Shown one piece after another: positions 13,079 to 13,417 of a DNA stretch of 64,000 nt. The translations under genes and the position numbers were made by a program. The notes under the pieces were generated by a model that was not told the DNA's origin, made no database searches, and saw nothing but the letters and a program-made list of their open reading frames with translations. This stretch comes from an uncultured Gammaproteobacteria bacterium (GTDB taxonomy: Bacteria; Pseudomonadota; Gammaproteobacteria; Steroidobacterales; Foliamicaceae). The stretch lies in contig OX639965.1 in assembly GCA_951828235.1 (NCBI GenBank), positions 598,323 through 662,322 of the forward strand, in the 5' to 3' direction. Each line of letters starts with the position of its first letter. Position 1 is the stretch's first letter.

Positions 13079-13417
13079 TTACACCCGTTCAATGAACACG
13101 GTCACTACTGATCCCGAAATAGCCGTCACCTCGGCTTCATAGGAGTTGTCATCCAGACAATCGATAAGGGTTCCTAGCTGGCGCACTCCAGTGATTGTGC
13201 CCGCCACCTCTCCTGTCACTTTAGTCAAGGCCGCGACGCTCGTGGACTCACCCCGCGTAATGAGTTGGACCGCCAGACGATCGCCTACGGTGAGTTCCTG
13301 AACAACTGAAGGGTCGGGGCCAAAAAGATCAACCTGGAACCGCAAATCACAAGCGTCATGTCCGCTTCCATTCCGATTGACCGGCGGAGGGCTATAGCTC
13401 GATCCGCTTCCACCCAT
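13079..13417 (-). CDS. Small beta-rich (possibly HIRAN-like) protein with MGGSGS N-terminus
   Basis: GGGGGA RBS before ATG, 2-bp gap to next gene, L.VGD.L.V...G.I pattern. Confidence 0.75.
   Translation of the reverse strand: MGGSGSSYSPPPVNRNGSGHDACDLRFQVDLFGPDPSVVQELTVGDRLAVQLITRGESTSVAALTKVTGEVAGTITGVRQLGTLIDCLDDNSYEAEVTAISGSVVTVFIERV

Follow-up and report, generated by a model that had tools for sequence, protein, structure and literature searches.

A small Gly/Ser-tailed protein encoded beside a QueC-like enzyme as a candidate substrate for N-terminal nucleobase conjugation

Why should a short protein that begins Met-Gly-Gly-Ser-Gly-Ser share an operon with an enzyme of the QueC family? 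The question is raised by a 64,000-nucleotide stretch of the genome of an uncultured gammaproteobacterium of the family Foliamicaceae (assembly GCA_951828235.1, contig OX639965.1, positions 598,323 to 662,322; hereafter the window), in which four genes on the minus strand follow one another in the order Ogg-HhH glycosylase-like protein, small protein (P0001), fusion of PfkB with a nucleoside 2-deoxyribosyltransferase (NDT), and QueC-like enzyme. Only two systems are known in which a QueC-family enzyme conjugates a nucleobase to a protein, namely type IV CBASS (an antiphage signalling system based on cyclic oligonucleotides) and Qat. We propose that the small protein serves as dedicated substrate for the QueC-like enzyme, whose gene is the second one downstream and which is predicted to carry out the conjugation, and we put the probability of this reading at roughly 0.6; the system would then look like a third, undescribed case of a base attached to the first residue of a protein. 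We read the protein in this way because of its N-terminal motif, its disordered tail, conserved synteny, translational coupling, a predicted complex with the enzyme, intact catalytic motifs and a defence-type context. A first-pass annotation of the window had put the small protein forward as a new class of nucleobase-modified partner; motif, tail, synteny and predicted complex speak for that proposal, while the deazaguanine donor pathway and the invariance of Gly2 that it called for do not.

The small gene occupies positions 13079-13417 of the minus strand and encodes 112 residues plus a stop; its translation begins MGGSGSSYSPPPVNRNGSGHDACDLRF. The start codon is the ATG at 13415-13417, and the coding strand reads TAG GGG GAA GCA before it (start context, 13418-13429): an in-frame stop (TAG, 13427-13429) stands 12 nucleotides, or four codons, upstream with no alternative start codon in between, and the purine run AGGGGGAAG lies directly 5' of the ATG as a good Shine-Dalgarno sequence (ribosome site GGGGGAAG). 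Given the upstream stop, the lack of an intervening start codon and the ribosome site, the start, and hence the MGG N-terminus, is secure, on firmer ground than the strong ribosome-binding site by which it had been fixed before. Starts of the form M[GS]G[GS]G at the first ATG occur in 3 of the 8170 six-frame open reading frames (ORFs) of at least 80 residues in the whole 3.11 Mb genome, the other two of which look like wrong-frame readings rich in Arg, Ala and Pro; a motif of the MGGSGS type is far from chance in this host.

Codons 1-24 (13346-13417) encode MGGSGS and a disordered Gly/Ser/Pro tail, the proposed acceptor arm, and codons 25-112 (13082-13345) encode a beta domain that is the predicted docking surface for the QueC-like enzyme. 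In an AlphaFold2 model built from 24 homologues (mean predicted local distance difference test score, pLDDT, 83.6), residues 1-20 have a pLDDT of about 50 and are taken as disordered, values exceed 85 from residue 25, and residues 25-112 form a confident beta domain of six strands and two short helices. The earlier description of a flexible tail ahead of a compact beta domain is thereby upheld.

An N-terminus of this kind has close parallels among the proven substrates. In type IV CBASS, Cap9 joins 7-amido-7-deazaguanine to Gly2 of the cyclase CdnD (modified peptide GGSGGSFGSGFDPR); the cyclases of this type universally begin M(G/S)G(G/S)GG, which is the conjugation site, replacement of Gly2 by Asp or deletion of the motif abolishes defence, and the final target of the modification is left open by the authors (Wassarman et al., bioRxiv 10.1101/2025.04.06.647259; cited as Science 389:1347, 2025). 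The operon in the window resembles these systems in the M(G/S)G(G/S)G start on a long disordered tail, with Gly/Ser alternation at positions 2 and 4, in having a small PP-loop enzyme of QueC-like type, which carries SGGxDS and a Cys-rich Zn motif, encoded beside the tailed protein, in the Ogg-like accessory (Cap11) and in the presence of a base-exchange type of enzyme. It differs in that the tailed protein is a 112-residue HIRAN-like domain and not a cyclase, the base handler is a PfkB-NDT fusion, the operon is without a cyclic-nucleotide effector, and the QueC-like enzyme belongs to another sequence cluster; searches with Pfam and PADLOC models found neither a CD-NTase nor a TGT-like Cap10 among the four operon proteins and the 1657-residue enzyme encoded next to them. 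In the Qat system, QatB starts MGTS on an unstructured tail, the tail and N-terminal Gly motif are essential, Gly2 being needed, and in the QatBC complex the tail comes to lie next to the active site (Gao et al. 2026, PMC13279940). As described there, QatBC likewise pairs a QueC-family enzyme with a protein of no Pfam family that has an unstructured N-terminal tail; unlike here, QatB is not similar to the small protein, and QatC has about 400 residues, with extensions and a remodelled active site, compared with 213 residues for our QueC-like enzyme. No PADLOC Qat model, whether for the QatA ATPase or the QatD TatD nuclease, matched at this locus.

Is the motif a property of this one protein or of its family? 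A word-indexed search returned 24 proteins including the query, all of 110-114 residues except one fragment, and none of them had a Pfam family or an informative name ('hypothetical protein' in one source). Among the 23 that include the N-terminus, 22 begin MGG and one MSG, so that Gly3 is present in all. When 1.84 billion representatives were searched with a profile, 788 clusters matched at E <= 0.001 and 129 did so at E <= 1e-10, and the protein thereby defines a large unnamed family. We counted the motif in the best 150 of the 788 clusters, keeping 141 after dropping three fragments, five proteins of more than 140 residues and one without an initial Met. Position 2 is Ser in 68, Gly in 58, Ala in 12, Thr in 2 and Gln in 1; position 3 is Gly in 131; position 4 is Ser in 74 and Gly in 32; and position 5 is Gly in 92 and Ser in 24. 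An M-(S/G/A)-G start is found in 129 of the 141 representatives, and the family logo is M-(S/G/A)-G-(S/G)-G. Gly makes up 32% and Ser 18% of the first twenty residues, and the tail before the first conserved cysteine spans 17-47 residues with a median of 23 (149 sequences). Gly2 had been expected to be invariant, and in these alignments it is so only among close orthologues: what the family as a whole conserves is a small residue that permits removal of the initiator Met, followed by a near-invariant Gly3. We do not read the variation at position 2 as a refutation, because the proven substrates show the same alternation of Gly and Ser.

Sequence searches assign the small protein to no named family. 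It had no Pfam match at E <= 0.01 and none in NCBIfam or PADLOC; together with six relatives it gave no Pfam family even at E <= 10 apart from one chance GHMP match, and against PDB sequences it gave two chance matches only (E 0.77 and 1.6). Searches of the literature on QueC, deoxyribosyltransferase/PfkB, deazaguanylation and HIRAN returned no description of such a partner protein.

The candidate enzyme (P0178; 213 residues, 11212-11853, minus strand) matches PF06508 at 3.3e-20 and the PADLOC QueC model at 3e-15, and scores 58.8 bits against the canonical QueC equivalog, whose cut-off is 150.3. It is separated from the small gene by the PfkB-NDT fusion (P0003; 408 residues, 11850-13076, minus strand; PF05014, Nuc_deoxyrib_tr, 2.3e-16 and PF00294, ribokinase-like, 6.2e-7). 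The stop of the small gene lies 2 nucleotides before the start of the fusion, and the ATG of the QueC-like gene overlaps the stop of the fusion as ATGA; the three genes are translationally coupled. The QueC-like enzyme has SGGIDS (residues 7-12), YGQIAAPRE, WPFRNQ and the cysteine-rich segment CHRAEIACGACRGCNK, which has the form CH(x)5CxxCxGCxK. In an alignment of 121 sequences, at least 90% conservation is seen for S7, G8, G9 and S12, for Y29 and Q31, and for C170, H171, C177, C180, C183 and K185, and G30 and E37 are invariant. In the fusion, the motifs GSGD (210-213) and D350-x-G-T-x-x-E356-x-G are kept in at least 18 of 19 PfkB-NDT sequences of 37-100% identity, and we take them to hold the catalytic Asp and Glu. 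By these alignments, neither the QueC-like enzyme nor either domain of the fusion has lost its catalytic motifs.

These features place the enzyme in a group that has been described from another angle. QueC 'Cluster 4' is marked by SGGxDS, YGQ(x)6E, CH(x)5CxxCxGCxK and a length slightly shorter than that of QueC, about 89% of its neighbourhoods contain a PfkB-NDT fusion (PF00294-PF05014), and purine salvage has been proposed as its role, with a 'divergent substrate specificity' (Libby et al. 2026, PMC13329287). Our enzyme fits this description in SGGxDS, in the exact cysteine motif, in its short length and in its PfkB-NDT neighbour; its spacing is YGQ(x)5E, one residue off the published YGQ(x)6E. 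The main text of that paper, to which the comparison is confined, mentions no small partner, N-terminal motif or defence role. Within the literature searched, both the partner protein and a defence reading of Cluster 4 systems appear to be undescribed.

The genes for the small protein and the QueC-like enzyme travel together in a wide range of hosts. A scan of a genome collection (contigs of one genome per species) with an alignment of eight sequences gave six loci from the side of the small protein, in Hoeflea, Breoghania, Pseudohongiella and metagenome-assembled genomes of Halieaceae, Proteobacteria and Binatia. The PfkB-NDT and QueC-like genes lie directly downstream of the small gene in all six and an Ogg-like gene upstream in five; the first ATG of the small gene gives MGG in all six, with an in-frame stop 3-6 codons upstream in four. 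For a test independent of the small protein we chose loci by the PfkB-NDT gene, which by tblastn against 72,556 plasmids matched 37 records at E <= 1e-30 (31-42% identity). We examined 17 of these, picked for taxonomic spread and not at random, with two pairs being near-duplicates. At 15 of the 17, an ORF recognized by the family profile ends at the PfkB-NDT start and a QueC-like ORF lies directly downstream; the family ORF begins MSG in 11, MSS in one and MGG in two (both haloarchaeal), and has no clear start in one. With a distant member of the family as query, 12 of 12 plasmid tblastn matches lie directly upstream of a PfkB-NDT match. To judge by these gene orders, the small gene and the QueC-like gene hold a fixed syntenic arrangement in hosts that range from bacteria to haloarchaea. 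We propose a core system of tailed protein, PfkB-NDT fusion and QueC-like ligase, with a variable accessory that is here an Ogg-like glycosylase.

The remaining two plasmid loci, from Neorhizobium petrolearium (L024:3995-8389) and Rhizobium etli CIAT 652 pB (L020:4001-8365), have a different order: PfkB-like, TGT-like, Ogg-HhH and QueC, followed by a 155-residue ThsB-type TIR protein. The TGT-like protein is fused to a TIR domain in the first, and in the second the evidence for TGT is weak, its E of 6e-4 falling short of the cut-off; the QueC of these variants is closer to the canonical type (138 bits in N. petrolearium). Their ThsB-TIR proteins begin MGGGGGGNW or MGGGSSGSW. We regard this MGGG tag, on an unrelated TIR body encoded directly after a QueC gene, as the strongest comparative support for a role of the motif as a tag, and the two operons look like a Thoeris-type TIR under control resembling that of Cap9, Cap10 and Cap11.

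Does the small protein bind the enzyme? We predicted the complex from a 121-row alignment of the QueC-like enzyme and a 149-row alignment of the small protein, with ATP and Zn included. The complex scored 0.84 in three runs, compared with 0.01 for the best of three controls; a score of this height is attained by 116 of 157 solved complexes and by 2 of 215 mismatched pairs, counts that apply only approximately here because we used our own alignments and ATP and Zn rode along. At least 89% of the contacts are shared between runs, and the pLDDT of the partner is at least 83. On the side of the enzyme the confident interface comprises residues 32-43, which come just behind YGQ, and the Zn region rich in Cys (161-187); on the side of the small protein it comprises residues 32-37 (the LFGP loop), 53-62, 71-77 (VAGTITG) and 101-104. 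The prediction supports binding of the small protein to the QueC-like enzyme.

From these observations, a sequence of steps can be drawn up. Methionine aminopeptidase removes Met1 when residue 2 is Gly, and by this rule the alpha-amine of Gly2 would be exposed. Residues 25-112 would then dock on the Zn-ribbon region and on the helix after the YGQ motif of the enzyme, as in the predicted complex, from where the flexible tail of about 22 residues could reach the PP-loop active site. At that site a carboxylated base activated by ATP, which by analogy with Cap9 would be 7-carboxy-7-deazaguanine, would be linked to the alpha-amine as an amide. What follows is speculative: the NDT, an N-glycosyl transferase, might take the place of the TGT-like Cap10, either it or the PfkB domain acting on or reading the tethered base, and the Ogg-like enzyme might reverse or edit that step. 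The idea, present already in the first-pass annotation, that an NDT or glycosylase pocket 'reads' the base is likewise speculation.

We stress that several observations weigh against the protein being a substrate. Position 2 is not invariant, Ser being about as common as Gly in the family and Ala also present, and one plasmid copy, on p1 of Azospirillum brasilense (L012:3400-3720), has no recognizable M(G/S)G start: its frame opens Pro-rich, all its candidate starts are GTG or TTG, and from one of these the protein would begin MSK. All confident contacts of the predicted complex are in the beta domain and residues 1-24 lie outside them, so that the tail is not confidently placed in the QueC active site. 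The PDB holds solved structures in which QueC-family enzymes are bound to protein substrates, and on this account the enzyme side of our prediction may lean on the model's memory of them; for the partner, neither a CD-NTase such as CdnD nor QatB is among the matches listed by the fold searches. No effector is evident among the four operon genes. The published salvage proposal for Cluster 4 and the state of the donor pathway, both discussed below, count on the same side.

The donor base deserves the closest scrutiny. The only PF06508 match in the host genome is the operon gene itself, and the genome (94.66% complete, one contig) has no match for PTPS/QueD, QueE not having been searched. It does have QueF, a Vut_1 (YhhQ-type) transporter, QueA and TGT (matches at C1:377333, 1232652, 2665840 and 2666883), its only TGT being a full-length housekeeping-type gene about 2 Mb from the operon. 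The presence of these four genes without QueD or canonical QueC is why the host looks like a salvager of preQ0 (or preQ1) for queuosine that is unable to make 7-carboxy-7-deazaguanine. Five other genomes with close copies of the operon, for which completeness is not given, have a canonical QueC in two cases (253 and 265 bits) and none in three, and a PTPS match in three and none in two; with the host included, four of six are without canonical QueC and three of six without PTPS. The base pocket has diverged as well, the enzyme reading TPDF where canonical QueC has YPDC, the QueC substrate motif (Libby et al. 2026, PMC13329287). All this tells against the substrate reading in its deazaguanine form. 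Because the host is without QueD and canonical QueC, the identity of the attached group as a 7-deazaguanine is the weakest part of the proposal, and we hold it to be clearly less likely than conjugation itself. Since several hosts lack the pathway to 7-carboxy-7-deazaguanine, the enzyme may use another base or one from outside, possibly that of a phage.

The alternative that survives best keeps the conjugation and changes the group: the N-terminus of the small protein would be joined by the QueC-like enzyme to another carboxylated base, to a product of the PfkB-NDT fusion or to something derived from phage. This would accord with the absence of QueD and canonical QueC from the host and from several hosts of close copies, with TPDF in the substrate pocket and with the divergent specificity inferred for the cluster (Libby et al. 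2026, PMC13329287). Set against it, the YGQ...E and RN residues, which in the same account face the base pocket in QueC and Cap9, are kept; a VUT-family gene with an annotation for queuosine salvage comes after one of the plasmid copies; and the companions of the enzyme, Ogg-like here and TGT-like in the variants, are handlers of guanine or deazaguanine. The attached group may be other than 7-deazaguanine, and we consider this version a live one, if on balance unlikely.

The fold of the beta domain bears on a second alternative. A VIA-align search against 48,161 chains gave as best match 3k2y_A, lp_0118 of Lactobacillus plantarum (Z 11.4, root mean square deviation 2.0, 86 aligned), followed by the HIRAN domain of HLTF (4xzg_A; Z 8.2, deviation 4.0, 92 aligned) and Rad5 (6l8o_A; Z 8.2, deviation 3.5, 85 aligned), with all further rows at Z 5.6 or less. 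We take 3k2y itself to be classed as HIRAN; a literature search on it gave nothing relevant. Foldseek found no match at E <= 0.001, its best being 2.3e-3 in a range to 2e-2; the nearest named cluster of the ESM Atlas is HIRAN at 0.84, a lead only; and the Pfam HIRAN model (PF08797) gave no match even at E <= 10. Given structural matches without a Pfam HIRAN match, we call the modelled domain HIRAN-like by fold and not a HIRAN member by sequence. While it superposes on HLTF and Rad5, two near-invariant cysteines and the N-terminal tail are features of the family itself: C87 is present in 149 of 149 members and C23 in 148 of 149, and G73, L84, Y93 and A95 are conserved in at least 90%. The conserved features that we assign to the HIRAN-like part are C23, C87, LFGP, VAGTITG and YEAEV. 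The codons of C23 and C87 are at 13349-13351 and 13157-13159, and both residues lie outside the predicted interface.

The HIRAN domain of HLTF binds DNA 3' ends, and the small protein might accordingly be an unmodified structural or sensor subunit, a HIRAN-like binder of DNA ends or nucleotides by which the PfkB-NDT and QueC-like enzymes are regulated or targeted; the Gly/Ser tail would then be no more than a flexible linker or degron, and the QueC-like enzyme would act on a free small molecule. Besides the fold, the confinement of confident predicted contacts to the beta domain, with none in the tail, and the inability of the host to make the Cap9 substrate de novo would suit such a role. A mere linker or degron would hardly account for a tail in which M-(S/G/A)-G is kept in 129 of 141 and Gly3 in 131 of 141 while the remainder varies freely, nor for the same start on the unrelated TIR body of the two variant loci and on the proven Cap9 substrate, and we think an unmodified subunit improbable.

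The genomic setting speaks to what the operon is for. The first 28 kb of the window have a GC content of 54-60%, compared with 62-67% beyond, and four tRNA genes (Pro, Arg, His and Lys, at 1960-2427) border the lower-GC stretch, which probably is an integrated island carrying the operon; its gene content (window 1-28000) includes PIN, DUF2971, the 1657-residue Mrr-helicase-methyltransferase described below, HipA, GNAT, MORN, a trypsin-like protease, Fic/DOC and an HTH-Peptidase_M78 regulator. The close-family profile matches 1 of 401 genomes sampled from the host phylum, that of the host itself. Copies on plasmids adjoin TIR proteins, an anti-phage dGTPase and restriction genes; the PfkB-NDT protein had no match among phage records. 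An island position and a sporadic distribution are the pattern of a horizontally moving defence module and not of core salvage metabolism, and the operon most likely acts in anti-phage defence. That it serves purine or deoxynucleoside salvage as proposed for Cluster 4, the small protein being unrelated or accessory, is a reading that the frequency of PfkB-NDT in Cluster 4 neighbourhoods and the nucleoside-metabolism folds of PfkB and NDT favour, and that we judge very improbable in view of the presence in 1 of 401 phylum genomes, the plasmids and islands with their defence and toxin genes, the small partner kept in 15 of 17 PfkB-NDT-chosen loci from bacteria to haloarchaea, its predicted binding to the QueC-like enzyme, and companions (DNA glycosylase, Mrr nuclease, Dam methylase) that do not fit.

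Should the small protein indeed be acted on by the QueC-like enzyme, the role in 'purine salvage' published for Cluster 4 would need correction, and the third case of conjugation would be a much simpler one, with a single-domain substrate of about 110 residues, a minimal QueC-like enzyme and a transglycosylase-kinase fusion in place of the TGT-like enzyme. This simplicity makes the chemistry downstream of conjugation directly testable. That a ThsB-type TIR protein in related operons carries the tag as well suggests that the acceptor motif is general and transferable, in which case further substrates might be sought from sequence alone. A bolder extension, which we regard as doubtful, is that the operon builds a protein-tethered nucleotide: the QueC-like enzyme would place a deazaguanine-type base on the alpha-amine with N9 free, the NDT would add a deoxyribosyl group at N9 or swap the base into a nucleotide or DNA, PfkB would phosphorylate the sugar, the HIRAN-like body would hold a DNA 3' end, and the Ogg-like enzyme would act as eraser. 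Were this true, the small protein would become covalently or tightly coupled to invading DNA, and the M(G/S)G tail would serve as a portable tag, an acceptor set by evolution on CBASS IV cyclases, TIR proteins and HIRAN-like domains.

The identities of the neighbouring genes implied by the first-pass annotation were confirmed by Pfam matches (Ogg-HhH, PfkB with Nuc_deoxyrib_tr, and QueC). The first gene of the operon (P0002; 13461-14216, minus strand; up to 251 residues, its start being uncertain) encodes an Ogg-HhH DNA glycosylase-like, Cap11-like accessory, with matches to PF22175 at 1.6e-9 and to the N-glycosylase/DNA lyase model NF002305 at 1.1e-11, the latter under the curated cut-off. 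It retains GVGPKTAS and, further along, ILDIH, which we read as carrying the helix-hairpin-helix Lys and the Asp. For the QueC-like gene, a reading of 273 residues from a GTG at 12033 was considered and rejected in favour of 213 residues, on the grounds that the ATG at 11853 overlaps the upstream stop as ATGA and that RefSeq-annotated plasmid homologues have 188-201 residues, mostly with a 4-nucleotide overlap with the upstream stop; the tblastn similarity across residues 1-60 of the longer reading falls within the stretch that codes for PfkB-NDT and is conserved. The minus strand directly downstream of the operon encodes a 1657-residue Mrr-helicase-methyltransferase of the Type ISP/IIG-like kind (6052-11025; Pfam Mrr_cat_2, ResIII and N6_Mtase; PADLOC REase_MTase_IIG, 8.3e-96). 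A tblastn search at E <= 1e-5 found it at none of the six close loci, and we treat it as a neighbour whose membership of the system those loci do not support.

Variation among the copies concerns both the small protein and the accessories. A profile search among proteins of 241-2000 residues, a weak test, found no fused or longer forms of the family, and tandem two-domain versions of 211 and 362 residues are present in haloarchaea. Plasmids of Haloarcula (L010:3369-4004) and Halorubrum (L023:2916-4004) encode two tandem beta domains behind an MGGG tail, with an Asp/Glu-rich linker of about 200 residues between tail and domains in Halorubrum. The accessory genes vary by locus and include Ogg-like, nitroreductase-family, Mrr-type nuclease and anti-phage dGTPase genes, with the VUT-family gene found once. 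Two plasmid loci (L014 and L021) have, on the opposite strand right after the operon, a gene annotated as Ogg-like and paired with a Dam methylase, and the same layout is seen at two others (L009 and L011), where the gene is annotated only as hypothetical. An annotated anti-phage dGTPase adjoins the system on plasmids of Rhizobium (L008), Citrobacter (L021) and Moraxella (L022), and in the Moraxella plasmid it is directly coupled to the QueC-like gene.

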